Origin: a virus
DNA length: 64,000 nucleotides
Reading direction: 5' to 3' (one strand)
Virus record (IMG/VR): IMGVR_UViG_3300037141_000243
Coordinates: 1-64,000 of that record
In this document: positions 8,001 to 49,131 of the stretch, one piece after another
Position numbering within the stretch: position 1 is the first letter of the stretch
Layout of the letters: each line of letters opens with the position of its first letter
Made by a program: the position numbers and the translations under genes
The notes under the pieces: model-generated
Seen by the model: only the letters and a program-made list of their open reading frames with translations
Told to the model about the DNA's origin: nothing
The model's database searches: none

Positions 8001-9023
8001 TTATTCGTAGGTCGCTGATAACACAGTTACAGCTTCCGGGCGGACGGCCCAGCCGGAAGAGATGCGCCATTCGGACAACACATCGATTGCGCCGCCGGGG
8101 ATGGGCGTCGGAATCTCACGCGGGGCTGCCATGTCATTGTACTGAAGGGTGCAGGCGTCGAAGCCCGGCTCCAGCTTGGCGAACTCGTTGGTGTTGATCT
8201 TGCCGCCATCCGGCTTCTGGACTTCTGGCATGGTGATGATAATGGCATCCGCACCGCCGCTGCCAGCACCGATCAGGGTGTCGTCATAGCACCACAGAAT
8301 TTCATCATCATTGGTATCCAGAACTTCCTTGACCACACCGGCGGTCGAGGTCGTGCCGGCACCCACGCGTTGGAATTGCGTAAGCTGGACGATGTTGGGG
8401 TATTCCATCTGGCCCAGATCACGCTGCGGTCCCAGGATGGTAAACTTGCGGCCAATACCCAGGGTATTGGTACGGGTCTTGATCGCAAGAATCTGGCTGA
8501 GAATGTAGAAAGCCAGTTGACCGTTGTCGTAGGTGACGATGGTATCGTTGTTAAACGCATCCGGGGGCAGGCTGACGGTGGTCGCTCCAGATGCGTGGAG
8601 CAAGCCCTCGCCGTTGGCCGGATTAAAGCCAGAGAGAAGGCCCGTGCGGGCAAGCTGGAAATGACCCTGCCGCATACCGAGGCGCTGGGCCTCGACAATG
8701 CTGACGCCCCATCGGGCGTTGGCAGCGGTATCGTGATGATCGTATTCCGCGCGCACCCGGAGCAGATAGGTGGGCGTGGATACCAGCGAGATGGTGGTGC
8801 TGATCGACGGCAGGTTGTTGTAGGCGGACTGGCCGGCAGCAACCTTGTTGCGGACGTCCATGCGTTTTACATAAGCATACAGATCGCCGTCCGACAGGCG
8901 GGTCTGCATTTCCCCGCCATAGAGAGTATCGAACGCACCGCTGGCCTGGGTATAGGGCAGGATGATCCGGGGCTCCATATAGTGGGGGCTAACGGTAACG
9001 AGGGCTGGTGCAAGACTTGACAT
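8001..9023 (-). CDS. Major capsid protein (putative)
   Basis: 340 aa; C-terminal SSGWAVRPEAV resembles HK97-fold capsid ends; follows protease, scaffold and decoration genes. Confidence 0.75.
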   Translation of the reverse strand: MSSLAPALVTVSPHYMEPRIILPYTQASGAFDTLYGGEMQTRLSDGDLYAYVKRMDVRNKVAAGQSAYNNLPSISTTISLVSTPTYLLRVRAEYDHHDTAANARWGVSIVEAQRLGMRQGHFQLARTGLLSGFNPANGEGLLHASGATTVSLPPDAFNNDTIVTYDNGQLAFYILSQILAIKTRTNTLGIGRKFTILGPQRDLGQMEYPNIVQLTQFQRVGAGTTSTAGVVKEVLDTNDDEILWCYDDTLIGAGSGGADAIIITMPEVQKPDGGKINTNEFAKLEPGFDACTLQYNDMAAPREIPTPIPGGAIDVLSEWRISSGWAVRPEAVTVLSATYE

Positions 9024-9928: not shown

Positions 9929-10786
9929 TTAGTTCAGGGTGTTGTTGCCGTTGGGCCGGGCAACAATACGTGCCTTGCGACCCGGACCGGAGAATGAACC
10001 CATCCAATCCTTCGAACGACCGTAGAAGGTGCTGATCTCACGACCGGTCTTGTCGCGATTCTTGATTTCCCGCAGGACACCAACCGGGATGTCCGTGGGA
10101 TTCAAAGCCACGCCCATGCTGTCGGACATGATCTGGTTTTCCGCGATGTCAAAAGCTTCGTCGCTCTTGATGGTATCCAGATCGACGCCTTTCCAGACCG
10201 CGCTGTGCTTTTTCAGATCGGTCGTGACACGGCGGCGGTACGCAAGTAGGGCCTCGCCGTCCAGGAAGCGCGGGGCTGCATCGCCAAACGCTGCGTAGAC
10301 GGTATCAAACTTGGCCTGGCTGGCGATGAGCGAACGGTAATCCGCGTCGGAGCGGGGAACCATGCGGGCCTTGAGGGAATTGATTTCAGCCATAAGGGCG
10401 GCGGAGTCAGCCTTGGCCTCTTCCTTCTTTTCGTCCTCGGCATCGGCTTTTTTGTCGGCCATCTTTTCCTCTTTGTCGTCTTCAGCGTCAGCCTTTTCTT
10501 CCTTGTCGTCCTCGGCATCGGCTTTCTTGCTGTCCTTGCGGGCTTTCTTGTCCGCAGCAACACGCTTGGGTTCATCCTCTTCCATGTCCTCGTCGGCGTC
10601 GGGCTTGGCCTTCTTCATGTCCTCGATGGAGTCCATGCGCCCGTCCATTGCGTCCATGCGTTTGCTAAGGCTGTCCATCGCAGAGCACGCGCTGTCTACA
10701 CCTTTCAAGATTTTGTCGAGCATCTGGCCGCCATCCGCGTCCGCCTTCTCGGCATTCTCTTTGTCGGCATTATTAACGTCTGCCAT
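9929..10786 (-). CDS. Capsid scaffolding protein
   Basis: ATG at 10786 with AAGGAG SD; acidic/Lys-rich KADAEDDKEE repeats. Confidence 0.7.
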   Translation of the reverse strand: MADVNNADKENAEKADADGGQMLDKILKGVDSACSAMDSLSKRMDAMDGRMDSIEDMKKAKPDADEDMEEDEPKRVAADKKARKDSKKADAEDDKEEKADAEDDKEEKMADKKADAEDEKKEEAKADSAALMAEINSLKARMVPRSDADYRSLIASQAKFDTVYAAFGDAAPRFLDGEALLAYRRRVTTDLKKHSAVWKGVDLDTIKSDEAFDIAENQIMSDSMGVALNPTDIPVGVLREIKNRDKTGREISTFYGRSKDWMGSFSGPGRKARIVARPNGNNTLN

Positions 10787-10881
10787 TGTATTCGTCTCCT
10801 TGGTTTGAGTGGTATTCCGCAAATAGTAATGGGTCCGGCCAACAAGTGCGGGCAGGCTGGTCCGGGTTAGGAAAAGTAGAA

Positions 10882-11715
10882 TTAAATAGCGGCTTGTTTG
10901 TTCTTCTTGGCGCGTCTTTTATTAGACGCGATTACCGCTGCGATTGTTCTGGCACGCGTAACAGGGTCAGACATTCGATCTTTAGCTGCTTTGCGATTAA
11001 TTTCTGTTTGTTTTGCGCGATAAATTGGATCGGCCCAATTCTTGTTATTGCGTTTTGTAGTAGCTTCACGCGCTGTAGCCGGCGGGGGTCGCCCATACAT
11101 CGGACTATTCTTTCCAGACATCGAAGCCCGGTATGCTTCATCCGCCCAAAGTTTCTTAGCGGCTTCGCTTGGTTTGCTGCTTGCCAAGCGGCCCCGGCTT
11201 ATACTGTCGCGATGCTCTTGGGTAATTGGTATACCTTTCCTTGGGGAAGGCTTACCTTTATTCCACGCAGGAATACCTTTCTTCCCCGCACTAATAGCAG
11301 CACATTCTTCCAGGGAGCGTTTACGACCTGTTAAGGAAGCTCGTCTTTTTTCATTGGTTTCTTTTGAAGGAATATGACCGGACATACCCTCACCACCATC
11401 AGTGAGATTAGCCAAGCGGCCCGTACCGTTATTAATCCTACCAAATTTAAGAATTAGTATGGATTCATACGCAAGGGCGTCTCTTTCCAAAAGACGCCCG
11501 CGAATAATTTTTCTTGGTACAAACCCCAATTCACGGATACGTTTTCTTATTGCATTTCGCTTGCGGATATTGGTGCAATGCTCATCAACATTTTCAGCGG
11601 CGGAGAAGTTTATACGACGACGCTGCCCTTTTCCAATATAAAAAGGATCAAGCATTTTTACATCCCGGTAAAGACCGTAAACGTAATATATTCTTTTTGA
11701 AACCTTAACTTTCAT
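10882..11715 (-). CDS. GIY-YIG-like endonuclease with NUMOD3 repeats
   Basis: YYVYGL..PFYIGKG..R, LANLTDGGEG, PAWNKG, KNSPMYGR; AT-rich. Confidence 0.8.
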   Translation of the reverse strand: MKVKVSKRIYYVYGLYRDVKMLDPFYIGKGQRRRINFSAAENVDEHCTNIRKRNAIRKRIRELGFVPRKIIRGRLLERDALAYESILILKFGRINNGTGRLANLTDGGEGMSGHIPSKETNEKRRASLTGRKRSLEECAAISAGKKGIPAWNKGKPSPRKGIPITQEHRDSISRGRLASSKPSEAAKKLWADEAYRASMSGKNSPMYGRPPPATAREATTKRNNKNWADPIYRAKQTEINRKAAKDRMSDPVTRARTIAAVIASNKRRAKKNKQAAI

Positions 11716-12842
11716 CGTGAGCGGGTTACCACGTTTTTAGAGTGAATATGTAAAAGAGTAAAGGCACGACCAAGCTGTCGATCATTATAAAGTGGACGAC
11801 TTTCCTCTTCAACAGCATCCGCAGCAATCTCTTGGTTAAGAACACCAACAGGATCGCCACCTTTATCCCAGACCCCGGCGCGAACGACCGCAATATGATC
11901 GTAAAGACTTGGCAAGCCCTCAATCAACAGTTTGCTACCATCTTCCAATTCAACGGTATTGTTAACCGTGGGATCGCGGAAGACGACACAGGGTGATGTA
12001 GATAATTGTTCATCCCGCATCATGGTGGCGGCTTCGTCATCGTAAATGGCGATGATGCCCCAAACCTCCTGCTCGACCTCTTTCAGGTAAGGCAGCACGG
12101 TTGTCCCGATGATGCGGTCGGCAAATTCCTTGCTATTCAAAAAGCCCTTCTTAGGGTGCTCCATGATGACTGGCTTACCATTACAGCGGGCCAAGAATTC
12201 AGGGGTCATGTAAAGGGCGGGATCGCGCCAGACAAATTCCTTGTGCTTGTGGCGGTAGGCAACCCCGGTTCCTGTAATACGAATGGCAAAGAGCCACATG
12301 TTGTCGTAATGCTGCGGGCTTGTAAGTCGACCATCGGCAATGGCCTGGGCCACCCCGGTCTCGTTCATGGTAAGACGATCAATCGCAATCTGGCAGCCTG
12401 GATGTAAAGGCTGGGGCGGGTTATTCAGTGGTGCCCAGCACCAGCCTACATGTTCCCCGTCCAGCTTTACCATAAACTCATCATCGACCTGCTGTATAAA
12501 CGTGGTGAAGTCCGTCTGTTCCTGGGGCGGGGTCGCAACGAGCGGGGCTGTGGTGGGTTGTGGCGGGCTTTCCAGGGCTGCTATGGGGGCAGGGGCCGGA
12601 ATAGGGCTGGCAAGGGCCTGTGGGGCGCTAATGGAGCGGGTCCAAGGGGTCAAATCCCCCTTGGGGATAGAACCACATTCCTCTTTGGCTTCGCGGACAG
12701 CGCATTCCTCTAGGGTCTCATCGCCTTCCTGCTTGCCGCCGGGGAAGCACCAGTAACCCGGCATGTCGCCTTTGTCAGAACGCTTTAATAGTAAGCAGTT
12801 GCCGTTGGGCGCGATGAAGAGGATTCCGGCGGCGGTAATCAT
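11712..12842 (-). CDS. NUDIX hydrolase fused to DUF2213-type prohead protease
   Basis: Complete Nudix box GKQEGDETLEECAVREAKEECG; C-terminal half with RITGTG, EHP, STSP and DHIAV..GVWDKGG. Confidence 0.8.
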   Translation of the reverse strand: MITAAGILFIAPNGNCLLLKRSDKGDMPGYWCFPGGKQEGDETLEECAVREAKEECGSIPKGDLTPWTRSISAPQALASPIPAPAPIAALESPPQPTTAPLVATPPQEQTDFTTFIQQVDDEFMVKLDGEHVGWCWAPLNNPPQPLHPGCQIAIDRLTMNETGVAQAIADGRLTSPQHYDNMWLFAIRITGTGVAYRHKHKEFVWRDPALYMTPEFLARCNGKPVIMEHPKKGFLNSKEFADRIIGTTVLPYLKEVEQEVWGIIAIYDDEAATMMRDEQLSTSPCVVFRDPTVNNTVELEDGSKLLIEGLPSLYDHIAVVRAGVWDKGGDPVGVLNQEIAADAVEEESRPLYNDRQLGRAFTLLHIHSKNVVTRSR

Positions 12843-14017
12843 TTACCCCAAGCATCCAAATCTTTACGGCTGAATTTGTCATTCAGAATTTGGCTGATCA
12901 AATCGGATTTGGATGACCCTTTAGTATCGTAAATGCGGTGATTGCGCTTGACCTCGCCTTCAAGGTATTGGCGACTGGCCGCCTTGAGTTGTTTGTATTC
13001 TTTGTCAATGTCCGCTGGTTCGGCGTCCGCCCCAATCCGCAGCCCGACGCGAGCTTTGACCTTGGTATCGGTGCTGTCGCCACGGGCAGCAACATGCCTT
13101 ACAGAATACACACCCCCAACCTTATCAATTCGATTACCACGATTGGCTTCCTCCTTAGCTGCCTTTTCAGACGAATACCGTTTTGACCCATTCTTATTGT
13201 CGTTGGGCGACTCTTTATTACGGTAATCAATTACCCAGTATTCGGGGTCAGCAGCATCGGCCCTCGCCTTCAAGCTATCGGTGCGGTCCAGTATCTTACG
13301 CAACTTTTCGCCGTCCGGCTTAACCGCATCATTCCGAAAGGAATTAACCGTTTTCCACTTTCCAGCTTCTTTATCGCCCATCCGTTCGTGAGCGATTCGG
13401 ACAGCATCTTGTTCGTTTGTGGCCCTGACGCGATGTTCTTTACGGTCATCACCCTTTGATAAAGTAACAGTCCAAGAGCGTAGGGCTGCGTCCGGCCTGG
13501 GACCGATGCCAGGCTTTTCCGCAATGCCCTTGACCACGCCGGCTGTCGTCTCGCTGTCGGCTTTACCGCTATTGACAATCTTTTCGTATTCTCTGATACG
13601 CTTTTTTATTGTGGTAATACGATCAGGATCTTCTTCGCCTATAAGCTCTTTCTTTAGGCGAGCAATAGAGGCTGACGGATTTGGTTCCGCATCCGCCCTA
13701 GCCGCTACCGCTTGCAGCTTGTCGATCTTGGCGTTGATCTCGCGGATGTAATCGTCGTAGGTCCATTTTTCAGGGCCTTGGACCTTGCGCTGTTCGGCCC
13801 TCACCTTGGTCAGCTCATCGCGGAGCATGGACAAGGATCGCAGGGCGGCATCGGTGGCGTCGTCTTTAGTAGAGCCTTTGGCAGACTTCTCAGCCACCTT
13901 AGCTTCAGCATCATAGCCCCTTTGCCACTCCCCGTTAGCCTTGGACCCGGCAGGATGCGGATTGCTTTTGGCCTTGCCAGACTTCCACGCGTCCCGTCCT
14001 GAAGCAGTTTCAGACAT
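12839..14017 (-). CDS. Modular hypothetical protein, candidate internal-head polyprotein
   Basis: About 390 aa; AGGAG SD; repeated [RK]xD[AS] motifs; overlaps the protease start (ATGA coupling). Confidence 0.7.
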   Translation of the reverse strand: MSETASGRDAWKSGKAKSNPHPAGSKANGEWQRGYDAEAKVAEKSAKGSTKDDATDAALRSLSMLRDELTKVRAEQRKVQGPEKWTYDDYIREINAKIDKLQAVAARADAEPNPSASIARLKKELIGEEDPDRITTIKKRIREYEKIVNSGKADSETTAGVVKGIAEKPGIGPRPDAALRSWTVTLSKGDDRKEHRVRATNEQDAVRIAHERMGDKEAGKWKTVNSFRNDAVKPDGEKLRKILDRTDSLKARADAADPEYWVIDYRNKESPNDNKNGSKRYSSEKAAKEEANRGNRIDKVGGVYSVRHVAARGDSTDTKVKARVGLRIGADAEPADIDKEYKQLKAASRQYLEGEVKRNHRIYDTKGSSKSDLISQILNDKFSRKDLDAWGK

Positions 14018-14023
14018 GTACAA

Positions 14024-14165: not shown

Positions 14166-16955
14166 TCACGGCGCTACGTCGTAGGCGTACCGCGCCCCGA
14201 CGATATAATTGCTTGAGTTGTGGAGCATCGTTGCAACATAACCGGCGTAGGTCTTGGTGTTTGCGTATCCGAGTTGTGAAGCCCCAGCCAAGACGCCAAA
14301 CGGGTAGCAGGTATAGTCCACTGACGCAGTCAGTCCGACTCGATACCCACCATTAAACTGGTCAATAGCAAGCGCGTCTATCATAGCTTGGGTTAGGGCA
14401 GCCGTGTTGTACCCCTGGGCATACATTGTGATCGGACTTCCAGAACTACCCACTGTCTGAGAGGTGTCTACGGTGTAAGTCCCGACTTGCCCTAACGGAG
14501 AACCCCCCTGCGTAGTAATATGCGTACCGATTGTTACACCCGCCCCAGAAAGCGGCCCGGGATTGATGCTGCCAAAGAATGGCGCGCTTGCCCCAAACGT
14601 AGCACTTGCGGCTGCAAGTTCAGACGCATCAGTAGATATGGCGGTTACAGTTAACGTCGTCCCACTTATGTATCCTGTGAATACTGAGCGGCACAGCGCG
14701 GCTTTATTCCAGTGATAAACTCCCCAGGCTCCAGTAGTCGAAGCATCTCCGGCAGACTGTAAGTAATAATCTCCCGCAGGCAACAATCCGTTACGCGGGG
14801 GCGGTCCGAGGTCTTGATAGAGATAGTCGTTGGCTAGGAAGTAAGGACCACAGTATGCCACGGGCCAACCCGATGTTCCGTTCGTTCTCCAAAGCGTGTT
14901 GTTTAGCGCAAAGGCGAACAACGTAGTAAGACCTGTCGAGACTCCAGCAGTCGTCTCAAGAAGCTGCCCGAGCATCATAGAGGTATTGAAATAGTCATTC
15001 TGCCAGTTCTCGTTCTGTCCTAGCCGTCCTATGTTTCCAGAGAACGCCGGGAAAACGTTGGCCCCGGTCACTCCGGGCTGTGTGATGAAGATTTCTGTAA
15101 AATACGCACAGTTACTTTTCAATAAGGTTAGAAACACCGAGGACGGAAGAAGCCACGCAGGAACCGCACCGTATGTCTGCTCGTAGGTATGGGTGACAAA
15201 CCAGGCGTTGATGAGGGATCGAAAGGCCCAAGCTGCGTCGCGCGTTATTTGCGGTTGTATGACAGGACTGTTCCCAAAGCCGAAGTGGTTAAAATTTCCA
15301 TATAGACTATAAAAATTATAATACTGCGTCTCCATGAAGCCGTCATTGCAATCTTTTTGGGCAGCTTCTATAAAACACGGGTCCCATGTCGCCAAAGCTG
15401 CGATACTTGCAGTATTCGGATAGTGACTCTCATCCATAACTACAGGACTGAGAACTATCGTATCCATGGACTGGCTAGTAATGGGGCTGGGATATCCAAA
15501 TAGGCCATCTATTGCGTATGTACCGATCCCGCCAGGCGTTCCGCTAAGTTGGCTTAGTATCGATCTGCTTTGGAGGGCACCGTTAGGAAATTGCTGGTAA
15601 GGCCCAACAACACCGGAGGCAACGGCGGTTACATTCATCACGCCTGATTGTGAGGACATTGTACAACTGGTTAGATTTCCGGGATTGGCCGCGCCAGACA
15701 TTTGGAACGTCGCTCCAGGAGAGCCGCCAGGGGTTCCTGTTAGCTGGCTGACGATTGTGACGCCAAAATAAATAGTATTTGTTCCGTCAGACCCGGTTAT
15801 ATAATCCCCCGGCCAGAGTGTGCCAGTAATGCCAGACCCCATTATCATAGTGGTGCCAGAGGTCGTGCTTCCGCTGAATGCCCCGGCAACCTCGGCAGTA
15901 AAGATTGCGGCGGCGGGTGAGTTGCTCGCGAGCCACCCGATGCCCTTAACAAAAGGGGTAAGGCCACCTTGACCGTAAGCCCCGTAAGAGTTTGCCCCCG
16001 GATAGGTCGTTAAATTTATCAGTGTATCCCCAGATGACGTCTCATCTCGATACCAATTCGGGATGGCATTTGACCCTTCAGCCCAGTCAAGAAACGCATT
16101 AGCGTAAGTTACGCTTCCGTATGTCGGAGAACCAACACCGCTTGGGTTGATGAGCCACTGGCCCTGAGACTCGGAAATAGCCCCGAGGTCATCGCGTTCG
16201 CCGGTGGCCCCCATTGCCGGATAAATCCCGGCGAGGCTCATCGGGCCGGTGTAAACAACAGGACCACCAGGGCCACCTTTACCTGGGTCCCAAGTGGAAC
16301 CAGAACTGTTGTTCGTGAACGGGTAGGTGATCCCAGTGTAGGGTGTCTGGCTCATTGGGAGATGCCAGCCGTTACTCATTATCGTAGCCGGGGTGTTGGC
16401 TATCGGACGGCGTGCCGACTGATACCGCCAGCGTGTCCACCAATAATGGACAGGAACATTCTGAGTCAGAATTGTTGTGCCATTTTTCTTTAAGACAACG
16501 CTGTATGCGTAACTGACGCTTGGATCATAAATTAAATTATAGGGGCTACCGCTGAAGGCGGTCCCGAACTCGACCATGAGTTCAATTCGACCAGAATATG
16601 CTGGGCTTGCTGCGTCCGGATTGAAGTAAAGTCGGAGGGGACACCCGGCCACCATCAGCCGGTAGTGGTGCATCGTGAAGCTCGGCCCGACGAAATCCCC
16701 GAGGTTCGTCGCGCTCGCCATGTCGAAGGTATAGACACCCCCGCCATTTGCCGGAGCCATCGTAACCGTAGCGACAAGGCCGCCAACAGGAAAGCCGACC
16801 GGCGGGATAACACCCATGTTAAGGGCCTTGACCGGCTTAGGCATTGCCGTGCAGGAGACGGCAAGCGCGAGCCCCACCATAAACCTCCTGCGCGATGGGT
16901 TTGTGCCGTCTGCCGCAATGGTAGTGGCCAATAATTTCGCGCGATATTTAGTCAC
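14166..16955 (-). CDS. Large Tat-signal protein, possible polysaccharide-active enzyme with fibre-like repeats
   Basis: SRRRFMVGLALAVSC twin-arginine motif; aromatic-rich body; repeats such as FTGYISGTTLTVTAI...GTYTV. Confidence 0.6.
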   Translation of the reverse strand: MTKYRAKLLATTIAADGTNPSRRRFMVGLALAVSCTAMPKPVKALNMGVIPPVGFPVGGLVATVTMAPANGGGVYTFDMASATNLGDFVGPSFTMHHYRLMVAGCPLRLYFNPDAASPAYSGRIELMVEFGTAFSGSPYNLIYDPSVSYAYSVVLKKNGTTILTQNVPVHYWWTRWRYQSARRPIANTPATIMSNGWHLPMSQTPYTGITYPFTNNSSGSTWDPGKGGPGGPVVYTGPMSLAGIYPAMGATGERDDLGAISESQGQWLINPSGVGSPTYGSVTYANAFLDWAEGSNAIPNWYRDETSSGDTLINLTTYPGANSYGAYGQGGLTPFVKGIGWLASNSPAAAIFTAEVAGAFSGSTTSGTTMIMGSGITGTLWPGDYITGSDGTNTIYFGVTIVSQLTGTPGGSPGATFQMSGAANPGNLTSCTMSSQSGVMNVTAVASGVVGPYQQFPNGALQSRSILSQLSGTPGGIGTYAIDGLFGYPSPITSQSMDTIVLSPVVMDESHYPNTASIAALATWDPCFIEAAQKDCNDGFMETQYYNFYSLYGNFNHFGFGNSPVIQPQITRDAAWAFRSLINAWFVTHTYEQTYGAVPAWLLPSSVFLTLLKSNCAYFTEIFITQPGVTGANVFPAFSGNIGRLGQNENWQNDYFNTSMMLGQLLETTAGVSTGLTTLFAFALNNTLWRTNGTSGWPVAYCGPYFLANDYLYQDLGPPPRNGLLPAGDYYLQSAGDASTTGAWGVYHWNKAALCRSVFTGYISGTTLTVTAISTDASELAAASATFGASAPFFGSINPGPLSGAGVTIGTHITTQGGSPLGQVGTYTVDTSQTVGSSGSPITMYAQGYNTAALTQAMIDALAIDQFNGGYRVGLTASVDYTCYPFGVLAGASQLGYANTKTYAGYVATMLHNSSNYIVGARYAYDVAP

Positions 16956-16958
16956 GGG

Positions 16959-17933
16959 TCAGCAGCCCAATGCGTTTGCTTGCCACGATGCGCAAGACCA
17001 ATAGCGGAAAGATTGGATATACATATCAATAGCGCTGGGTGGCGAACCACAGTTCGGCTGTCCCCCGCCGCATTGTTCGGCCATCCACATATTAACAATG
17101 TGAAGCTGGCTTTCTGTGTCTGCGGTAGTTGAGCCACTGGTCACGACACTATGATCGTAATACCAGACAATCCCCGGCCCTCCGCCACATGCCCCTGATC
17201 CCACAAATGTTCCGCACCATAAAATTCCGATTGTGTGAAACACTGTTGGGTCGCCGGGCGATACTGAGCCAGACGCACCAGAACTGTTGGTCGTCCCATT
17301 GCACTGTGCATCGCCGGGGCCGTTTGTCTGATGCAAGGTCACATGCAACGTGCTGTCGGTATTGTAGCTCCACTCGTTGTCTATTTCGCTATACGGTGGC
17401 GCTGTTCCAGATACGGGTAATGTGGGAAAGCCTTGTGCCAGACAATTTTTCCCGGTCGTGAGCCCGAGTAACCATTCTGCACCCCATGCGGCAGTGTTGT
17501 TCGGCGTGTATCTTACGACCCACTCATAATAGCCATGACCAAAAGCGCGGTAGGTCGAAAGCGATCTATCGCCGGACGAAATTGTAGGCAACGGGCAAAG
17601 CGTTCCGGGGTTTGTAGTCGGTAGTGGGCATCCAGTTGTTGCAAAGGCTGTTACCCATTGCAGATGAATATTCCCGCTTGCGTCAACGCTGATGTAAGAA
17701 GATGGCACCGAATAAAAGCTCGGCGCTCCTTGCCACAGTCCATTGTGCCACATATGGCCGGCGGCTGTTCCGGTTTGGTCAATGTCAAAGCCGGTAGCTG
17801 CGTCCTGATTGCTGGCAAGCGTTGAGAATAGATTGGCGCTGGCTTCAATCGGCGGGGTTAGGTTTTCAGTCGGAACAACGCCGCCAAAGGCGCAGAGGCT
17901 TGCCCATAGGGCGACGACGATAGTTAGTCGCAT
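16959..17933 (-). CDS. Signal-peptide protein, glycoside hydrolase family 16-like
   Basis: Hydrophobic N-terminus; FGHGYYE, AWGAEWL, EIDNE (ExDxE), FHTIGILW, MYIQSFRYW. Confidence 0.65.
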   Translation of the reverse strand: MRLTIVVALWASLCAFGGVVPTENLTPPIEASANLFSTLASNQDAATGFDIDQTGTAAGHMWHNGLWQGAPSFYSVPSSYISVDASGNIHLQWVTAFATTGCPLPTTNPGTLCPLPTISSGDRSLSTYRAFGHGYYEWVVRYTPNNTAAWGAEWLLGLTTGKNCLAQGFPTLPVSGTAPPYSEIDNEWSYNTDSTLHVTLHQTNGPGDAQCNGTTNSSGASGSVSPGDPTVFHTIGILWCGTFVGSGACGGGPGIVWYYDHSVVTSGSTTADTESQLHIVNMWMAEQCGGGQPNCGSPPSAIDMYIQSFRYWSCASWQANALGC

Positions 17934-20312
17934 TTAATTCCCGCCGCGATAATCGTACCAACCAAGCGTATTGAGAGCGACACCTGCCTCCGTTCCATTG
18001 GTATTTATGTCAATTTGCGAAGATGTGTTTGTGCCGACTTCTGCAAAAGCAACTGTGGATGGCACGTACGCATTCGTGTAGCACTGATAATTATTATTCC
18101 CATTGGTGGTGCTGCCTGCGGTTGGGTCGAATAAGACAGTGGCTATAGCAAGTGACGATCCGCAATAGTAATTGAACTTTGCTATGACATTCACGCCAAG
18201 AGGAACTGTTAAAGTTGTGGCAGTTGTTCCAGAACTTAATGTCGCGCTGCTTAAATCTCCAACCGGCGCTGTCCAGATGAAATTTCCGCCTCGTTGCGTG
18301 TAGGCAATGATATGCGCAGAGCCGTCCGTCTTGAACGAACCAAGCCGTCGATATTCTGACCCGGTAATACCGCTTGGCTTGTTGGCGCATGTTGCCGAAG
18401 TGTCGAACGAATAATCCGTTGTCCCGGCGTTTTTCCATTCGCAGACGTGATACCAAGTCGAATTAGCAATCGTGAGGCCGTTCCCCATGCCATTGCTGCC
18501 AGAGCCCGATGCCCAAGCGCCAGCGGTTGATTTGGTGAAGGCTGCCGCCGTCAGTTCATCGGTATTAGTGCTGTCAGCCGCTTGGCAAGCTGCAATGTCA
18601 AGAATGCTGTTAGGTGTGCCGCCATCATTCGAGAGGGTGCAACCGCCGATGCTGTTATAGACAACAGATGATCCGCCGCCGCCCGATGAATTTATCGTGC
18701 AAGATATGGACGAAGAACTGTTGCAGGTACCGGAAACCGTAACGTTGGTTCCGGCGATAATGTCAACGCTCGAAACGCCGCTGCCAGCACCTGTGTTGCA
18801 ATTAATGACCGTGCCGGAAGATGTGTAAGTGCAATAATCGCCATTGGTCAGCGTGCCAAACGTAACGGTCGCGCCAGGCATCTGGGCGGCGGCAACTGCT
18901 CCGCTGATATTGGTGAACGCAGGCTGCGCCGAACTCCACACACCATTGGCGCTCAATCCAGTAAGGAAATTGTTCGTGACTGGCGTAAAGGCCGGAACGA
19001 TGTTTGCCGAGATCGCTGACCATGCGCCGGTCCCAACCTTTTTCAGAATGTACCAGCCGTAGGTATTGTCTACCTGGATGGAGGCATTGACGCCGTTGAT
19101 CGTGTCGGTGCCGTTTGGAGCGACTAAAAGATGATAAGTGGCTCCAACCGCGCCGCAATCGCCAACCACAATCTCCTGCCCGGTCGTGTAGCTGGTCGTA
19201 GCCAGCAGCGAGAGAGTGCGATTTGCGGTGAACGTGGTCGAGAAGCAAGCCGCCTTATCGGTACTCGCCATCGTGTAATTGCTGTCGGCGGCGTGATTGG
19301 TAAGCTGTGCTTCGGTGAATGTGGCGCTGCCCGCGCTGCCGCTTACCGTAAAGCCAAGGCCAGCCGATAGTGTTGCGGTATTGGTAACGCTGTTGCCGAG
19401 AAGGTCTTGGGTAGTTAGGGGTGAACCGCTACTGGTCGATGTAATAATACCCCCCGTGCAGGTGATCGTAGTCCCGTCGCACTTGACGCCGCCGAAGGCC
19501 GCCGTCGTGGCCAACGGAAGGATCGAAGGGGTGAGGAGGCCACCGCTTGTTGTCTCAACGATGGTGCTGTTGCCGGTCAGGCCGTAAGGAAGCTCCTGGA
19601 GAACACCGCTCGTGTCGATTTCCACGCGCCCGCTCGTACCGGAAGTTATGGTCGTCGATCCAACCGTTAGGCCGCCGGACCCGGCGGGGGTGGACCACGT
19701 ATTGTCGCCGCGAAGATACGTTGTGCTGCCGGGCGTACCAGTCGCTGTCGTTCCGGTCGAAGCTACGAGCCCGCCCGCATTCGTCAGCGTAAGCGAAGAC
19801 GGAGTTCCACCAGCACCGTTGAATAGAACAGGAGCGCCGGCTGAGCCAACGTTTACCCCAAGGGCTGTAAGAATACCGGTCCCGGTTGTAGTAGTCGATG
19901 GCGCTGATCCAGCCCCGCCACCAATCACCAAGGCGCTCGTCGCAAGCACCCCGCTGGAAAGCCACGTGCTGCTGCTATTGAAATACGGGATACCGCCGCT
20001 GGTGCCGGCAACCGTAAACGCCAAGGTACCCGTGCTTGTAATCGGGGAGCCGGCAATTGAAAGCAGGCCGCCAACAAAAGTCGCGCCAACATGGGTAACT
20101 GTTCCGCTACCGGTACCGCCACCGGTACCGCACGCATTACCGTTCGCATCCATCGTGCCTTGAAGCAAAGACCCCACCGTATAGGTAGGCGCTCCGCATG
20201 ACGCGACGACCCGGTATTGCGGGCCAGCACCAGAGCTGATCCCTTGTGAAACAGCAGGGCCAATAAACGCAAACGCAAATAGCGGTGCGGCAAAGAGTAA
20301 TTTTCTGATCAT
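17934..20312 (-). CDS. Fibre-like protein with N-terminal signal peptide
   Basis: MIRKLLFAAPLFAFAFIGPAVSQ; Gly/Thr/Ser-rich; YLRGDNTW fibre motif; C-terminal TWYHV...YRRLGSFKTD domain. Confidence 0.65.
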   Translation of the reverse strand: MIRKLLFAAPLFAFAFIGPAVSQGISSGAGPQYRVVASCGAPTYTVGSLLQGTMDANGNACGTGGGTGSGTVTHVGATFVGGLLSIAGSPITSTGTLAFTVAGTSGGIPYFNSSSTWLSSGVLATSALVIGGGAGSAPSTTTTGTGILTALGVNVGSAGAPVLFNGAGGTPSSLTLTNAGGLVASTGTTATGTPGSTTYLRGDNTWSTPAGSGGLTVGSTTITSGTSGRVEIDTSGVLQELPYGLTGNSTIVETTSGGLLTPSILPLATTAAFGGVKCDGTTITCTGGIITSTSSGSPLTTQDLLGNSVTNTATLSAGLGFTVSGSAGSATFTEAQLTNHAADSNYTMASTDKAACFSTTFTANRTLSLLATTSYTTGQEIVVGDCGAVGATYHLLVAPNGTDTINGVNASIQVDNTYGWYILKKVGTGAWSAISANIVPAFTPVTNNFLTGLSANGVWSSAQPAFTNISGAVAAAQMPGATVTFGTLTNGDYCTYTSSGTVINCNTGAGSGVSSVDIIAGTNVTVSGTCNSSSSISCTINSSGGGGSSVVYNSIGGCTLSNDGGTPNSILDIAACQAADSTNTDELTAAAFTKSTAGAWASGSGSNGMGNGLTIANSTWYHVCEWKNAGTTDYSFDTSATCANKPSGITGSEYRRLGSFKTDGSAHIIAYTQRGGNFIWTAPVGDLSSATLSSGTTATTLTVPLGVNVIAKFNYYCGSSLAIATVLFDPTAGSTTNGNNNYQCYTNAYVPSTVAFAEVGTNTSSQIDINTNGTEAGVALNTLGWYDYRGGN

Positions 20313-20680
20313 TGGAATTGCCCCGTCAAGATTTGCATGTTGGTCATATTCGCGGTCGATCCTGTGGTGTTGGCAATGGCAGCTACAAAGGAAAGGTAAG
20401 GCACCTTGTCTGTAGTGCCGACAGACCCCGGCGTTGCAATAACCAAAGCCTGGGTCGATACATCAATCAGGATAGTCCCGGCCAGATCGGCGTAGCGGGT
20501 AACCGTAAGAGTTACCGCCTGATCAGATGTTGCGTAGAAAACTATCCCGCCAAAACCTGCCGGCATAAGATCAGATGACCATGTCCCGGTAGTGGCTACC
20601 AAGCTCGCGGGAAATGGAATAGGTGGCACAGCGGGCATCGTCCCACAATTTGGGTAAGATTTCAGAGGCGTAAGAGCCAT
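20309..20680 (-). CDS. Hypothetical beta-rich protein
   Basis: 123 aa, coupled to the next gene. Confidence 0.55.
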   Translation of the reverse strand: MALTPLKSYPNCGTMPAVPPIPFPASLVATTGTWSSDLMPAGFGGIVFYATSDQAVTLTVTRYADLAGTILIDVSTQALVIATPGSVGTTDKVPYLSFVAAIANTTGSTANMTNMQILTGQFQ

Positions 20681-20774: not shown

Positions 20775-21611
20775 TTAGGCATTCTGTTGTTCGCGCACAG
20801 CCTTGAGGGCGTCGCGACCCTTAGCCGTTATCATGGACGCGGGGAGGTCCGAGATTGAGTATTGATACTCGTAATGGCAAGAACAGTAAATTAGCTCCCC
20901 AGGTTTTTCAATGCTATCCGTGTAACCATTGGGACCTTTGTTCATAAACCCCGCCTTCATCGCCCAATTGTTCTTGACGGCGTAAATCTTACCCTCGCGG
21001 GCAATATGCTCAGGCCGCGGATCATAGCCGGCGCGTCGTCCTGTGTGACGCCAGATGGCAGCAATAGCCCCGCCATCGGTTGCGATGATCTCGTTGATCG
21101 CAGACACCAGCTTGGCGTTCTGGTCAATGAGTACCCGGCGCTCTTCAAAGGGCAGGCCCTTAACCGCTTTCTTGATGCCCTTCTTGGCGTCAACCTTATC
21201 GGTCGCCTTGCTGCCGCCCTTGGGTATGGATGTAGCCCAACCCTGGAAGCGGCGTAAGGTGGCTTCCGTCATCTCCTCGCGATTCAATTTGATCAGGCTG
21301 GCGCTCGCCATGATGCGGCGATCCAGCTCGGCGCGAAGGTGGGGTGCGATGCGGTCTATTGTAAAGCGTTCCACGCCTTGGTGGAATTGTGCGATGTTGC
21401 CTTGCTCGATCATCTTCTTGTAAGTCAGGGTCAGCACCTCACGCAACATTTCATCTAATTTGTAGAGTGGCACAAAGCTGGTATCAATTGCGTCACGCAG
21501 GCGCTTGGTCCAGTAGGCCACGCGAGCGGGATCGTCGTAGCCATGCTCCGCCATATTGGCGACTGCCTCATTCAAAATTGAATAGAAGTCGTCCCGTTTA
21601 TTGGGGGGCAT
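20775..21611 (-). CDS. Head morphogenesis protein (MuF/SPP1 gp7-like)
   Basis: W......R.EH..REGK.Y and KPGELIYCSC motifs; downstream of the portal. Confidence 0.75.
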   Translation of the reverse strand: MPPNKRDDFYSILNEAVANMAEHGYDDPARVAYWTKRLRDAIDTSFVPLYKLDEMLREVLTLTYKKMIEQGNIAQFHQGVERFTIDRIAPHLRAELDRRIMASASLIKLNREEMTEATLRRFQGWATSIPKGGSKATDKVDAKKGIKKAVKGLPFEERRVLIDQNAKLVSAINEIIATDGGAIAAIWRHTGRRAGYDPRPEHIAREGKIYAVKNNWAMKAGFMNKGPNGYTDSIEKPGELIYCSCHYEYQYSISDLPASMITAKGRDALKAVREQQNA

Positions 21612-22084
21612 TATTTCTTCAAACGCCGCGTGCGCTCAGCGTAGTCTACTATATCCCCGCTGGGCACCATGCGAAACTTTCCATCACCGAGAGGATCAGA
21701 ACCGTAATCCCCCGGTCGATTTGTATTTATTGCCCGACGAATTGGGGTAAGTGTTTTACGATCAAGTTCATAAGCGCCCATAACTGTGGGGCGCTCTTGA
21801 TCCCGTAATTTATCAGAACCCTTTGCATCGCTACGCAGCTTACCATTCAGGCTAATTTTTGCTTCTCTATACCCCAGGCCAAGCGGATCGGGGGAGGGCC
21901 TAAGACGTTTCAATTGTTTTTCTGCCGCCTCACGTGTGCGCTCAATCGAACTAGTACGCCCATCGGAACCAATAACGTGGAAAAACACACCGTTATTATT
22001 GTGCTGTTGGATAAAGGGCGTAATCGCGTCAGCCTTTGCCTTTAGGCTATCCAGCCGCGCGGCAATGTCCTGAAGCTTTCCCAT
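21611..22084 (-). CDS. Hypothetical protein, candidate second capsid cargo
   Basis: Starts MGKLQDIAARLDSLKAKADA, similar to a scaffold helix; internal RSDA. Confidence 0.6.
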   Translation of the reverse strand: MGKLQDIAARLDSLKAKADAITPFIQQHNNNGVFFHVIGSDGRTSSIERTREAAEKQLKRLRPSPDPLGLGYREAKISLNGKLRSDAKGSDKLRDQERPTVMGAYELDRKTLTPIRRAINTNRPGDYGSDPLGDGKFRMVPSGDIVDYAERTRRLKK

Positions 22085-22299
22085 TAGAATCCATTTCCCA
22101 TCAAGCGATGTACCGATGCATAGCAATCCAGCAAACCCTCCAGAGCGGTAATGGTCTGGAATCTCTTATCATCAAGAATCTGCCAATCGCAGCGCCTACA
22201 GGCATCCTGGTACTCAGACATACCCGTGTTAAAGGCCATGGTGGCCCTTTCGGTCTGCAAGGAGGCTTGCTTAAGGACCTCGGCAGAGATGGCCGCCAT
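22084..22299 (-). CDS. Hypothetical protein
   Basis: 71 aa, overlapping both neighbours by one base. Confidence 0.55.
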   Translation of the reverse strand: MAAISAEVLKQASLQTERATMAFNTGMSEYQDACRRCDWQILDDKRFQTITALEGLLDCYASVHRLMGNGF

Positions 22300-23798
22300 T
22301 AGCCCGCTGTGCCCGCCTCACGGCGATCCTGGAGCAGGCGCAAGAGCTGGCGGCTTTCAATCCGGCCCCGCGTGCTGTCCTTGGAGCTGAACGGGGCTTC
22401 CGGCTTCTCTTGGCCAAGGGCCGCTTGTTGGGGCGGCTCGTAATCAGCAATGGCTTGGTAATCCATAACAAGCGGGGCAGAGAACAGCTTCTTGAGGTCG
22501 TTGATATTATCCGCAGCCCACTGAATCAGTACCGCTTTGTTGTCTGGATCAATTTCGGGGATCAATACCTCGAGGATCGCGATGATGGCTTTAAGCTGTA
22601 CATCGTCTTTCTTTACAAGTTCCGATTCAGGCTCGGTAAGCAGCGATGGCCAGATTGCGCTGAAGCTGTTCTGCCATTTGTAGAACGCTTCTTCGTAGCT
22701 GGTCTTACCGTATTCCTTGGGGAAGAGATTCTGGATGGTGGCGTAGAATTCTTGATTCCAAGCGCGGTGCATCACAATGCGGTCAAAGAAAGCGTAAAGG
22801 GGCTGCATCTGAACGCGGACCTTGTCGATGTACCGGGCCACATATTTGGCGTCCTCGGTGCCTTCGCCAAAGCCTTCCGCAAAGGTTTCCGCATTCAGTA
22901 TCTTGGCCGGCATGTCTGCACCGCTGGCAATGTTCTCCAAGATGTTCTTGCGGCTCTCTGACATGGCAGTATTGACGTTCTGCATGTTGAGCGTCTCGAT
23001 GTCTTCGTCAGGCGTGATACCGATCACATTGCCGGTTACCGCTTCCTTGACAAAATTACGCTTAAGGCCAGCCAGGAACGCCATCGCCTGATCCACCACC
23101 GATCCAGGCTGCTTCATCTTGGCAACAATAACGCCGGCCTTAAGGCTTACCAAATCGTCCGTCACCATGGTCTGGATAAAAGACTTCAGCGGGTAGAGCG
23201 GGCGCTGGTAAACAGAGCGGCCCACATAACCAAAGGCGGATGTGGTATACCCGATATAGATTGGCTTTTCGTTCAGGATAGTCACTGTCCGACTGCGGTG
23301 GTAAGGCACGCCGCTTACGCTAATGCTCCGCACCTTCTGGAAATCAAGATCATTGGGATTTTGATTGAGGACCAAGCTGCCGGATGTGTTCAGCGGATCG
23401 TATACATTGAAGCTGATGTCGGCCTTTGCCAGCCCCTTGAAATCCATCGGCTTAGTCGACACCCAGCCATCAACTAGCATCGCAATGCTGGCAATACCGT
23501 AAACCCGTGACCACCCCATCGTATCCGCAATATGACCGTCGGCCCCGATCTTGTCCCATTCCCGCTTAAAGGCTTCGACGACCTTTTCCTCAGGGCTATC
23601 GGGGCAGGTAATGATGCGGGGTTTGAATTGCGCCATGTCGATAGGCGTGTCAGCAAGCTTCTTACCCAAAGTGTGGTATTGATAAATTACCTTACACATC
23701 TGATAGCTGGGATCAGACCCCGGAAGGATTTGGTCACAGGCCATGATGTCCCATAACGGATTACCTATATTGGACCCGTTAAACTGGATGGTAGCCAT
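22299..23798 (-). CDS. Portal protein (DUF1073-type)
   Basis: 499 aa after the terminase; WSRVYG, YHRSR, ASGADMPAKIL, GEGTED motifs. Confidence 0.8.
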   Translation of the reverse strand: MATIQFNGSNIGNPLWDIMACDQILPGSDPSYQMCKVIYQYHTLGKKLADTPIDMAQFKPRIITCPDSPEEKVVEAFKREWDKIGADGHIADTMGWSRVYGIASIAMLVDGWVSTKPMDFKGLAKADISFNVYDPLNTSGSLVLNQNPNDLDFQKVRSISVSGVPYHRSRTVTILNEKPIYIGYTTSAFGYVGRSVYQRPLYPLKSFIQTMVTDDLVSLKAGVIVAKMKQPGSVVDQAMAFLAGLKRNFVKEAVTGNVIGITPDEDIETLNMQNVNTAMSESRKNILENIASGADMPAKILNAETFAEGFGEGTEDAKYVARYIDKVRVQMQPLYAFFDRIVMHRAWNQEFYATIQNLFPKEYGKTSYEEAFYKWQNSFSAIWPSLLTEPESELVKKDDVQLKAIIAILEVLIPEIDPDNKAVLIQWAADNINDLKKLFSAPLVMDYQAIADYEPPQQAALGQEKPEAPFSSKDSTRGRIESRQLLRLLQDRREAGTAG

Positions 23799-24445: not shown

Positions 24446-25741
24446 CTAATATCCATCAGTATTTCCCAAGGCTAACGCGATACCGTAACAAAACACGTCC
24501 AAAAGGTCATCCTCGCGCCCTGGCGTTTTATCACCAATCCTAAAGCCACAGACTTGTGACAGGAAATGATTACGCGTTGCGCCCTTATAGCTCACAGTCT
24601 TGTCATACGCGTGGGCAGATAGCTTTACCTTTTCCTGGAAGAAGTACCCGGACGCATTGATCGCCCGCTCATCCTTACCCATTGCGGTAAGGTCTGACTC
24701 AATTTCATGCACGTTTTGCCCACGCCGCTTGGCCTGTTGCAGGAGAATGGAGCCGGACGACTTGTCCTCGATGTAGGCCCCAATTGATCCTGACCTTGCG
24801 TGGGTAAGCTGGGCTAATTCTTCAAGCCGGCGAAATACGTTTGGTAGCCAGGTCTCAAGCAAGGCCCCCTCGATCTGCTGGATGTCCCAATCAAGCAATA
24901 CAAGCGGGTAGCCTTTACCAAACTTGGACCGGCTAAAGTAGCCAACCGCCGTACCATCGTTATCCTTGCCGGTCTTGACCGCCGTATCGATGACCGCAAA
25001 GACTGAATCGCATTGTGCGGGCATAGCGACAGGCTGACCATTGACCAACATCTTGTCCTTGGCAAAGAACGCCACCCCGGACCAATCGACAAAGTCGGCT
25101 AATATCTCTTGAGCGTAAACCAGGGGGTGCATGGTCTTGGCCCACGCTTCCAGGTCCTCGCGCGGCAGCAGCGGGTTCTGCTGGCTTGGGGCGTGGTATT
25201 CCTTAAAACCGTGTTCCGGCTCGTTACATATCTTCCAGAAGAATTGATCCGGGTCAGCGCCGTTGGTATTGGACAGGACCAAAGCTGATCCACGGTAATC
25301 AAGTAAAGTCGGCTTGATCGCCTTGGACCAAATGTCCATCATGTTAGGCTTGGTAAACGCAGCCTCATCGATGATGACTTTGTGGTACTTGCGCGAACGA
25401 CCGGCGGATAAGTCTTCCAGGGTCCAGAAGTCTAAGCGGCCCCCGGTAATGGTCCGGATAATGTCGCGGCCCCCGCTTGGGTATTTCCTTACCGGCTCAA
25501 TCACTTCCGATATTTCGTTAATGATTTCTGTGAGGCGCTTGTAGTCGGGGGCGAAGTAACCGACCAGCTCCGACTTGATCAGAGCGTCCTCAGCAATGAT
25601 GCTCCCGAAGGTGCTCTTGCCCCAGCGCCGGCCACAGCGGACCGCGTAGTAGCGGGAGCGGTTGTCAAAGCAGCTTACCTGTCCTGAATGCAGGGTCGGG
25701 AGGTCTACCTCGATTTCCCGATGCTTTCCAGCGGCACTCAT
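24446..25741 (-). CDS. terL: Terminase large subunit
   Basis: Walker A CGRRWGKS, Walker B VIIDEAAF, RNase H-like IDTA..DGTA, IEDKSSG, EDDLLD. Confidence 0.93.
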   Translation of the reverse strand: MSAAGKHREIEVDLPTLHSGQVSCFDNRSRYYAVRCGRRWGKSTFGSIIAEDALIKSELVGYFAPDYKRLTEIINEISEVIEPVRKYPSGGRDIIRTITGGRLDFWTLEDLSAGRSRKYHKVIIDEAAFTKPNMMDIWSKAIKPTLLDYRGSALVLSNTNGADPDQFFWKICNEPEHGFKEYHAPSQQNPLLPREDLEAWAKTMHPLVYAQEILADFVDWSGVAFFAKDKMLVNGQPVAMPAQCDSVFAVIDTAVKTGKDNDGTAVGYFSRSKFGKGYPLVLLDWDIQQIEGALLETWLPNVFRRLEELAQLTHARSGSIGAYIEDKSSGSILLQQAKRRGQNVHEIESDLTAMGKDERAINASGYFFQEKVKLSAHAYDKTVSYKGATRNHFLSQVCGFRIGDKTPGREDDLLDVFCYGIALALGNTDGY

Positions 25742-48757: not shown

Positions 48758-49002
48758 ATATTGCGTCCGTGATAATCGCCCATCAAATCGGCTTTATTGT
48801 AACCATCATTCCAAGCCGCCCGCCGAATTTTAGCGTGCTCGGGATATGGATTGGTATAAAGGCGCTTCGGAAGGGCTGATTTAGCACAAGCGTATTGCGC
48901 GGCGGTCTGCCCAAGCTCGTAGGCTTCATAAGTCGCATAATTCATCGGGCCATGACGCCACATCTGGTCAAAGCCCCTCTTTTCCCGGCGATAATTGGTC
49001 AT
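48754..49002 (-). CDS. Small protein with Rmf/CrpP-like motif
   Basis: AYELG..A...NPY.......AAWNDGY. Confidence 0.5.
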   Translation of the reverse strand: MTNYRREKRGFDQMWRHGPMNYATYEAYELGQTAAQYACAKSALPKRLYTNPYPEHAKIRRAAWNDGYNKADLMGDYHGRNI

Positions 49003-49061
49003 CTGATTTCCCTTTCTATTGCAGCGCCCGAGCCGTTTCCGGCGGCCTGGGTCGCAGGGGA

Positions 49062-49090
49062 ATAATGGGCTTTTCCGGGGGCCTTTGCAA
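49062..49090 (-). promoter_or_regulatory. Possible sigma70-type promoter
   Basis: TTGCAA-N17-CATTAT in the intergenic gap before the small-gene run. Confidence 0.4.
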
Positions 49091-49131
49091 GCCCCCAAAG
49101 GGCAAGTTGTAAGCCCTTGTACATATTAGTA

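Follow-up and report, generated by a model that had tools for sequence, protein, structure and literature searches.

A phage makes its first move against the defences of its host with packaged, injected proteins, of which, to our knowledge, detailed accounts exist only for T4, P1, N4 and the giant phages. The closest known system to the one considered here is that of the T4 internal proteins IPI-III and Alt with the head protease gp21. In the published accounts of T4, gp21 cuts Glu-Ala bonds after L/I-x-E, Asp at the P1 position blocks processing (PMC9026906), and the diverse internal proteins have only a targeting sequence in common (PMC9026906, PMC3012670). The protease of SPN3US is described as removing its own C-terminal propeptide and cutting the propeptides of ejection proteins several times (PMC10052503), and for polyvalent proteins packaging, delivery and in some cases processing have been predicted (PMC5512222). 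The present analysis concerns IMG/VR virus record IMGVR_UViG_3300037141_000243, a 72.8-kb record judged 98% complete, of which the first 64 kb (positions 1 to 64,000) is referred to as the window. Within it, a minus-strand gene at 12839-14023 abuts the gene of a prohead protease fused to a NUDIX domain. The product of this gene, referred to as the target, is on balance probably a dispensable prohead cargo polyprotein, cut after Asp at R/K-x-D-A/S.

The target open reading frame (ORF) is real, with a TTG start, a product of 394 aa and an AAGGAG Shine-Dalgarno sequence directly upstream. The public gene call (P0001) starts two residues later at an ATG and encodes 392 aa. By coordinates, the target stop overlaps the protease start by 4 nt. 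The initial annotation had listed eight [RK]xD[AS] sites in this protein as well as the related GADA and KPDG, and all of them are present, the eight at residues 53, 109, 154, 176, 230, 247, 254 and 314 and GADA at residue 331. The observation of repeated sites in the target is thereby confirmed. The scaffold protein has ten such sites. The variants AADA, said to lie near the C-terminus of the protease, and SKDS, near that of the portal, are both in place, the latter at residues 472-475 of 499. The sites and segments of the target are the following, where P0002 and similar numbers denote related proteins from database searches.

13856..13867, minus strand: site 1, K-D-D-A, residues 53-56, opening the module common to P0002 and P0003
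13700..13855, minus strand: module, residues 57-108, a helical hairpin with 67% identity to P0003 and 48-56% to P0002
13688..13699, minus strand: site 2, R-A-D-A, residues 109-112, closing the shared module
13553..13564, minus strand: site 3, K-A-D-S, residues 154-157, of which the preceding 42 residues are missing in P0002 and P0003
13487..13498, minus strand: site 4, R-P-D-A, residues 176-179, in a low-confidence linker just ahead of the mini-domain
13337..13486, minus strand: module, residues 180-229, a beta-beta-alpha-beta mini-domain with a predicted local distance difference test score (pLDDT) of 81-88 and homologous modules in P0004, P0005 and P0007
13325..13336, minus strand: site 5, R-N-D-A, residues 230-233
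13253..13312, minus strand: scaffold-like helix, residues 238-257, with a hidden Markov model (HMM) match at residues 241-258 (E 3e-4 after iteration)
13085..13252, minus strand: module, residues 258-313, a second beta-beta-alpha-beta element in a low-confidence model, homologous to part of P0008
13073..13084, minus strand: site 8, R-G-D-S, residues 314-317
13022..13033, minus strand: relaxed site G-A-D-A, residues 331-334, directly preceding the last module
12842..13021, minus strand: module, residues 335-394, two-helix, also found as free-standing proteins of 65-87 aa

The helix at residues 238-257 contains site 6 (R-T-D-S, residues 247-250) and terminates in site 7 (R-A-D-A, residues 254-257). 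At the position aligned to the target GADA, x-D-A also occurs in P0006, P0009, P0012 and P0015.

Expected numbers of [RK]xD[AS] were obtained from composition-preserving shuffles (n=2000 for the target). The target holds 8 sites against 1.49 expected, a count that 0 of the 2000 shuffles reach, while the scaffold holds 10 against 1.44 and a 171-aa protein of the head module 3 against 0.37. These three are the only ones among the 101 non-overlapping ORFs of the 72.8-kb genome with at least three sites, and the remaining 98 ORFs pooled have 14 against 20.4 expected. The test against the rest of the proteome that the initial annotation had called for thus shows an enriched motif that is specific to three head-module proteins. 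Since the motif was picked after looking at the sequence, a count of every 2- and 3-residue pattern, gapped or not, was made over 20 cargo-like proteins (6,594 aa) to lessen this bias, and it answers the point in part. R.DA tops this count (37 against 4.55 expected), and R.DS (15 against 2.45) and K.DA (20 against 6.43) are also high; these 20 proteins were partly hand-picked and share ancestry, so that p-values are indicative only. Some of the scaffold sites lie within a low-complexity K/D/E/A repeat. The flanks of 97 distinct sites show a mild preference for Ala or Ser at P4 and for Ala at P2. Furthermore, among the relatives, which are 80 of the 196 related viral stretches from a search with the NUDIX-protease, four loci have a conserved 7-residue spacer ending G-R-x-D-A between unrelated modules.

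Sequence searches show the target to be a mosaic. The whole protein matches no family in Pfam (E<=0.01) or PHROG, and six segments of it searched against Pfam at E<=5 gave nothing near a curated cut-off. By tblastn it has no match in 50,697 phage records or in 82 other related loci, and a word-index protein search found only P0002 besides the target's own record. When 1.84 billion representatives were searched exhaustively with HMMER, there were 17 hits, and, the target's own record aside, each of these covers a single part of the protein. Residues 53-122 are matched by P0002 and P0003, residues 122-260 by P0004, residues 175-234 by P0005 and P0007, residues 222-317 by P0008, and residues 329-394 by ten proteins, half of which (five) are free-standing, with lengths of 65-87 aa. 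The parts are joined to other segments in these partner proteins, in differing order; in P0002 and P0003, for example, the 57-108-type module is set among different neighbour modules. The alignments end in the target at 53/54, 155, 176/179, 232-235, 259, 316 and 330-344, and the sites end at 56, 157, 179, 233, 257, 317 and 334. When all 218 internal ends of BLASTP alignments in 42 proteins are considered, 34.9% fall within 6 aa of a site, against 17.2% at random, and 0 of 2000 permutations reach this value. Module shuffling at the motif, which had been proposed for comparison between loci, is therefore borne out in the form of independent parts whose alignment ends cluster at sites. Locus searches with P0002 in viral and metagenome contigs and with P0003 in metagenome contigs found nothing.

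Structure prediction gives a similar picture. In a single-sequence AlphaFold2 (AF2) model, the target does not form one domain (predicted template modelling score, pTM, 0.27); a single-domain fold is what the initial annotation had named as speaking against a polyprotein. The model features confident helices at residues 53-151, a confident beta-beta-alpha-beta mini-domain at 182-231 and a like element of low confidence at 261-312, and eight of nine sites are located where a predicted secondary-structure element ends or within linkers of low confidence. The modules had also been called unrelated. Two of them, the beta-beta-alpha-beta modules at residues 180-231 and 261-312, share their predicted topology, though a comparison found no similarity in sequence. 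A Foldseek search of BFVD with the low-confidence whole-target model returned low-TM rows only. The last module (residues 335-394) resembles HeH/LEM or Rho_N models with a feature score of 0.75 and TM of 0.65-0.72, which is a weak lead, and has no Pfam or PDB sequence match. An RMF-like reading of residues 1-56 is not supported, as there is no Pfam RMF match at E<=5; they also have no BLASTP similarity to the ORF at 48757-49098.

The internal segment that had been noted to resemble the scaffold was followed with an HMM, made by phmmer from target residues 233-262 and two subsequent hmmsearch rounds over 6,686 ORFs from both strands of all loci and the genome. This gave 80 domain hits at E<0.01 and zero on the non-coding (decoy) strands. 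Scaffolds are hit at their N-terminal helix, both as separate genes and in forms fused after the protease, and small ORFs that abut the protease are hit at a helix close to their C-terminus. The other hits are in the 171-aa ORF at its N-terminus, in the scaffold of the window, and in one 55-aa ORF elsewhere in the genome. The resemblance is thus real beyond this genome and common to scaffold N-termini across the family. Besides the target helix, two such helices belong to the head module of the window:

22025..22084, minus strand: N-terminal leader helix of the 171-aa protein, ending K-A-D-A (HMM match E 6e-5)
10649..10726, minus strand: N-terminal helix of the scaffold, about residues 33-58, ending R-M-D-A (found with the helix HMM)

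In 13 aligned scaffolds, R-M-D-A at the end of helix 1 is invariant, and in most of them a second [KR]-A-D-[SA] lies ahead of the conserved C-terminal domain. The motif also recurs at roughly heptad spacing within scaffold helix 1. The N-terminus of the target has no helix match, its tag-like helix (238-257) being internal. The proposal that the helix acts as a loading address agrees with its being shared with the scaffold, but the helix is not always a leader, as it is internal in the target and near the C-terminus in many relatives. A predicted complex of the scaffold (13-row alignment) with target residues 226-266 scored 0.00 twice, without controls, and speaks neither for nor against binding. 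The 55-aa ORF (48590-48757, minus strand) lies outside the head module and matches the helix HMM with E 3e-6; it has no R-x-D-[AS] site and may be a chance match or another helix user.

The neighbouring gene was said to encode a prohead protease, and its predicted fold agrees. In Pfam, the NUDIX domain is matched with E 2e-17 and DUF2213 with 26.4 bits (cut-off 22), and there is a weak match to PHROG 530. A PDB sequence search with the full NUDIX-protease profile found NUDIX enzymes only, and one with the protease-domain profile found nothing significant; the protease call therefore rests on DUF2213, the weak PHROG 530 match and the fold. The protease domain, residues 133-334 (11841-12446), was modelled with AF2 from a 24-sequence alignment (pLDDT 86, pTM 0.81). 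Its top structural match is T4 gp21 (5jbl_A; Foldseek probability 0.99, E 8e-3), to which VIA-align superposes 130 residues at 2.6 A rmsd and Z 10.1, while the next unrelated fold reaches Z 5.5 and herpesvirus proteases Z about 5. His229, Ser281, Ser283 and His316, candidates for the catalytic residues, are invariant in 22-24 sequences. The motif also marks the C-terminal boundary of the protease itself. Among 64 distinct protease or protease-scaffold proteins, 41 have [RK]xD[AS] within 22 residues past the conserved domain end and 49 have x-x-D-[AS] in the same stretch, compared with 0.4% and 12.4%, respectively, of control windows in the NUDIX-protease body. In the window, this stretch contains one site:

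11814..11825, minus strand: A-A-D-A, residues 340-343, just past the protease domain and inside the 22-residue post-domain stretch

In relatives, the protease and scaffold genes are either fused (about 640-690 aa) or adjacent, and in fused forms a site lies at the protease-scaffold junction. Pantoea phage PdC23, a cultured relative whose protein belongs to this protease-scaffold family, has R-S-D-S after the protease domain. The fused genes of L011, L013, L014, L018, L020 and L024 have a Met 1-3 residues past the post-protease site, which suggests a nested internal scaffold start. Nested scaffold starts are known from lambda C/Nu3 and Mu I/Z. The NUDIX hydrolase domain is fused to the protease N-terminus throughout the phage family (loci L004-L083), with its motif residues intact and invariant. 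Because no motif site lies between NUDIX and protease, the NUDIX enzyme would be packaged with the protease. A promoter-like site is found at 11812-11784, inside the end of the protease gene.

Nearly all genes of the window are carried on the minus strand, and the head module reads in transcription order as follows.

24446-25741, minus strand: terminase, first in the head module
22299-23798, minus strand: portal, 499 aa, following the terminase
21611..22126, minus strand: second candidate cargo protein, 171 aa from TTG and likely 157 aa from the ATG at 22084, with the 3 sites (0.37 expected) counted above
20775-21611, minus strand: MuF/SPP1 gp7-like head morphogenesis protein (PHROG 324)
20680 down to 14166, minus strand: four genes without family match, between the MuF-like gene and the target
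12839..14023, minus strand: candidate cargo polyprotein gene (target), 394 aa with the TTG start or 392 aa with the ATG at 14017, matching no family in Pfam or PHROG
11712..12842, minus strand: NUDIX-prohead protease fusion, 376 aa (Pfam NUDIX and DUF2213; T4 gp21 fold match)
10882-11715, minus strand: GIY-YIG homing endonuclease gene (PHROG 314, E 7e-11), between the protease and scaffold genes
9929..10822, minus strand: scaffold protein, 297 aa, with 10 [RK]xD[AS] sites
between the scaffold and major capsid protein genes, minus strand: PHROG 6268 protein
8001-9023, minus strand: major capsid protein, last in this order

PHROG 6216 spans protease and scaffold, which gave rise to the idea that the GIY-YIG gene split a fused protease-scaffold gene; this is unproven, as many relatives have separate genes. 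The C-terminal module of the 171-aa protein (21611-21850, minus strand) belongs to a widespread small family with 32 database relatives at E<=0.001, which are free-standing at 86-114 aa or joined to various segments on either side. The four genes in the slot between the MuF-like and target genes (14166-20680, minus strand) encode proteins of 929, 324, 792 and 123 aa, three with a signal-like N-terminus and none with a family match. Of these, only the 123-aa protein has relatives in related loci (three), in or near the same slot, and one of these loci (L024) also features a 764-aa repeat-rich protein there.

The MuF-protease slot varies considerably. Across the 44 loci in which both genes are present, the gap spans 30 to 6455 bp, and it is 7.9 kb in the window. 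The ORF abutting the protease in relatives is often a motif-rich, multi-module protein rich in K, R, D, E and A. Such ORFs have 9 sites against 0.93 expected in L004, 8 against 1.24 in L007 and 8 against 1.25 in L009, and the 607-aa abutting protein of L017 has 12. Among 73 distinct cases, 15 have no separate abutting ORF, and in several of these the protease ORF itself is extended at its N-terminus by additional modules. In the other 58, the abutting ORF has the helix in 24, at least two sites in 16 and either feature in 33, and in 5 it is the MuF-like gene itself. In P0007 (806 aa), modules homologous to target residues 146-232 are fused N-terminally to a NUDIX-protease-scaffold, and all 14 matches of P0007 in cultured-phage records align to the NUDIX-protease-scaffold part only. 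Pantoea and Yersinia phages have the MuF-like gene followed within 30-43 bp by a single NUDIX-protease-scaffold gene, and in Shewanella and Escherichia phages the genes are ordered alike, again without an additional gene in between. In all four cultured phages inspected, the gene ahead of the protease-scaffold is MuF-like or one in its place.

Several features of the abutting proteins in relatives are recorded here in their own right. Many cargo proteins open with one of three recurring modules of roughly 40 residues that start M-P-L or M-P-F/S. Those at L022:9750-10001 and L015:6637-7005 end in modules that near the Pfam RMF cut-off of 27.9 bits (26.0 and 23.9 bits), the latter directly following an R-A-D-A site. 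The small abutting protein of L062 has a DUF6321 domain (E 6e-22). This protein begins with a short helix that ends in the motif, and so do the abutting ORFs of about 110 aa in L006, L007, L009 and L010, which look alike to it by eye, that of L006 having no Pfam match.

The initial annotation's interpretation of the target as a cut, packaged cargo polyprotein is partly supported by these data. In the sequence of events proposed, the target is, as read from the sequence, a late product expressed together with the head genes, and its translation is coupled to that of the NUDIX-protease. It would then enter the core of the assembling procapsid through the amphipathic helix of roughly 20 residues at 238-257, which is the same element as the scaffold N-terminal helix. 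The gp21-fold protease would subsequently cut at (A/S)-[R/K]-x-D-[A/S], the cut being placed after Asp by analogy with the Glu-Ala bonds cut by T4 gp21, and the same rule would remove the C-terminal tail of the protease and chop the scaffold. Nine cuts would give ten pieces, among them six modules of 5.1-7.1 kDa with a pI of 8.3-9.8, which would be mildly basic. In the least certain step, some of these modules would remain associated with the DNA and pass into the host, as is the case for T4 internal proteins; we are accordingly less sure of injection than of the cargo reading. The MuF-protease slot would be where the phage lineage swaps modules. More tentatively, and with a fair measure of doubt, the locus may represent a two-part code, in which a copy of the scaffold helix is the address and an Asp site, (A/S)-[R/K]-x-D-[A/S] with the cut after Asp, is the release signal read by the gp21-fold protease. 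Exchangeable mini-proteins would thereby be loaded into the capsid and set free as individual factors of 5-7 kDa, to reach the host along with the DNA, passengers would include RMF-like ribosome silencers and HeH-like DNA binders, and NUDIX would be a further packaged enzyme.

A number of points weigh against the cargo polyprotein reading. The phage is uncultured, and the inspected cultured relatives are without a cargo gene in the slot. The abutting 399-aa protein of L011 is not enriched in sites (2 against 1.33), and in the phage of the window the protease's own tail site is A-A-D-A rather than [RK]xD[AS], with 23 of 64 relatives lacking the strict motif there. The sequences compared are related and hence not independent, so that the support is overstated by counts of conservation. 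The motif is depleted in proteins that must survive in the prohead (1 against 16.5 expected in the protease body, 2 against 12.5 in the MuF-like protein and 2 against 9.1 in the capsid protein), but the terminase, a control not exposed to the protease, is also half-depleted (8 against 16.5), and the depletion argument is therefore only suggestive. In many relatives the helix comes after the cargo part, where a cut at its end would not free cargo from helix; a pure address-leader model is thus too simple, and the helix may serve for docking to the protease instead of as an address. The HeH-like and RMF-like calls fall short of the curated thresholds, with no module of established function, and 5-7 kDa pieces might exit the capsid like scaffold fragments.

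There are three other explanations of the locus. The target could be an accessory scaffold or core protein that joins the scaffold in assembly by means of their common helix and undergoes cutting at the same sites. The fragments would then be expelled or serve as counter-ions, and the modules would have no effector role. Its helix is the same as that of the scaffold, its site density is about equal, no module has a demonstrated function, and T4 core proteins are described as degraded at many sites (PMC9026906). This explanation is unlikely, if the strongest of the rivals, given that a target-type gene is missing in 5 of the 58 loci in which an ORF abuts the protease, and likewise in the four cultured phages that were inspected, and so is not needed for assembly. 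Furthermore, the modules are compact and some are free-standing small phage proteins, relatives carry RMF-like and DUF6321 modules, and fast module turnover suits a conflict role better than a structural one. It is also conceivable that the target is a packaged internal or ejection protein that stays intact or is cut once or twice, with R-x-D-[AS] as a structural or docking element, such as a helix end that binds scaffold, protease or portal. The motif does often close an amphipathic helix, its recurrence in scaffold helix 1 is roughly heptad, and the co-folding score gives no verdict either way. Many sites, however, are in disordered inter-module linkers far from helices, and the G-R-x-D-A spacer between unrelated modules in four loci, the clustering of alignment ends at sites, and the site at the protease-scaffold junction of fused forms all speak against this explanation, which is improbable.

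Lastly, the packaging of the target is only proposed, and homologues of its last module occur as free-standing genes. Both would be compatible with a cytoplasmic late protein, a regulator or assembly chaperone that is not virion-associated and lies beside the protease incidentally. Such a role appears very improbable in view of the 4-nt overlap with the protease gene, the fusion of homologous modules to a protease-scaffold in P0007, and the fact that, in this genome, the scaffold and one further protein of the head module are the only others to have both helix and motif.

If the cargo polyprotein reading is true, an ordinary 73-kb phage lineage that is abundant in metagenomes has a polyprotein version of the T4 system, with an Asp rule instead of a Glu rule. 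Scanning for helix and site would then be a simple route to new injected mini-proteins, and the DUF2213 protease family would have its first substrate specificity. The helix would also be a compact tag for loading foreign proteins into capsids, as part of a natural, portable tag-and-cut delivery by small phages. A literature search, mostly without subscription journals, turned up no account of the motif, or of cargo polyproteins, for this phage group, and the titles and abstracts on DUF2213 hold nothing on protease specificity.

Compared with the giant phages phiKZ, 201phi2-1 and SPN3US, which have gp175/gp245-type proteases, the locus shows two likenesses as far as those systems are described (PMC10052503). 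There the protease loses its own C-terminal propeptide, and here the motif lies just past the protease domain; there the propeptides of ejection proteins are cut several times at sites fitting one short motif, as proposed here. The giant-phage enzymes differ in cutting after Glu, and what remains once their long propeptides are lost is one large mature protein, whereas mostly separate small modules would result here. Polyvalent proteins (Iyer et al., 2017; PMC5512222) are likewise strings of unrelated, shuffled domains beside head genes such as MuF and portal, and several unrelated shuffled domains linked to head genes are what the target has. Those proteins are described as large, with 2-15 mostly enzymatic domains and in-built metallopeptidase processing (PMC5512222), while the modules here are of 45-60 residues without a Pfam family, and the joints match the presumed site of the prohead protease. 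Enzymatic, LPD or peptidase domains of the polyvalent type gave no Pfam match in the whole target or its six segments, these being Pfam profiles rather than those of Iyer et al.

With prohead scaffold and core proteins such as T4 gp22, the target shares its dense sites and a scaffold-type helix. It differs from them in that it is neither conserved nor required in related phages, being dispensable in relatives, and has folded mini-domains that are also found as separate genes. Encapsulin cargo-loading peptides and MuF-fused polymorphic toxins also use a short portable tag or fusion to send diverse passengers into an HK97-fold shell or phage head, but these systems are not known to have protease-site joints and their tags are unrelated in sequence. 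The T4 internal proteins come closest. In both cases variable, small, basic and otherwise unrelated proteins share only a common tag that ends in a head protease site, beside a protease of gp21 fold, and an acidic residue precedes the cut, which for the target is a proposed one, and a small residue follows it. The short N-terminal targeting sequence of T4, which the head protease takes off, has no counterpart in the target, where the helix is internal, although a helix does stand at the likely N-terminus of the 171-aa protein, and the L/I-x-E rule is replaced by [RK]-x-D-[AS] as the enriched motif. The proposed system is thus distinct from T4 capsid targeting in that P1 would be Asp rather than Glu and P3 a basic Arg or Lys rather than Leu or Ile, and in having many very small modules per polypeptide, with 8-9 sites as joints. 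In addition, its tag would be a helix of roughly 20 residues that is homologous to the scaffold N-terminal helix and may be N-terminal, internal or C-terminal, all within a 73-kb genome with a MuF-type head module and a NUDIX-fused protease.

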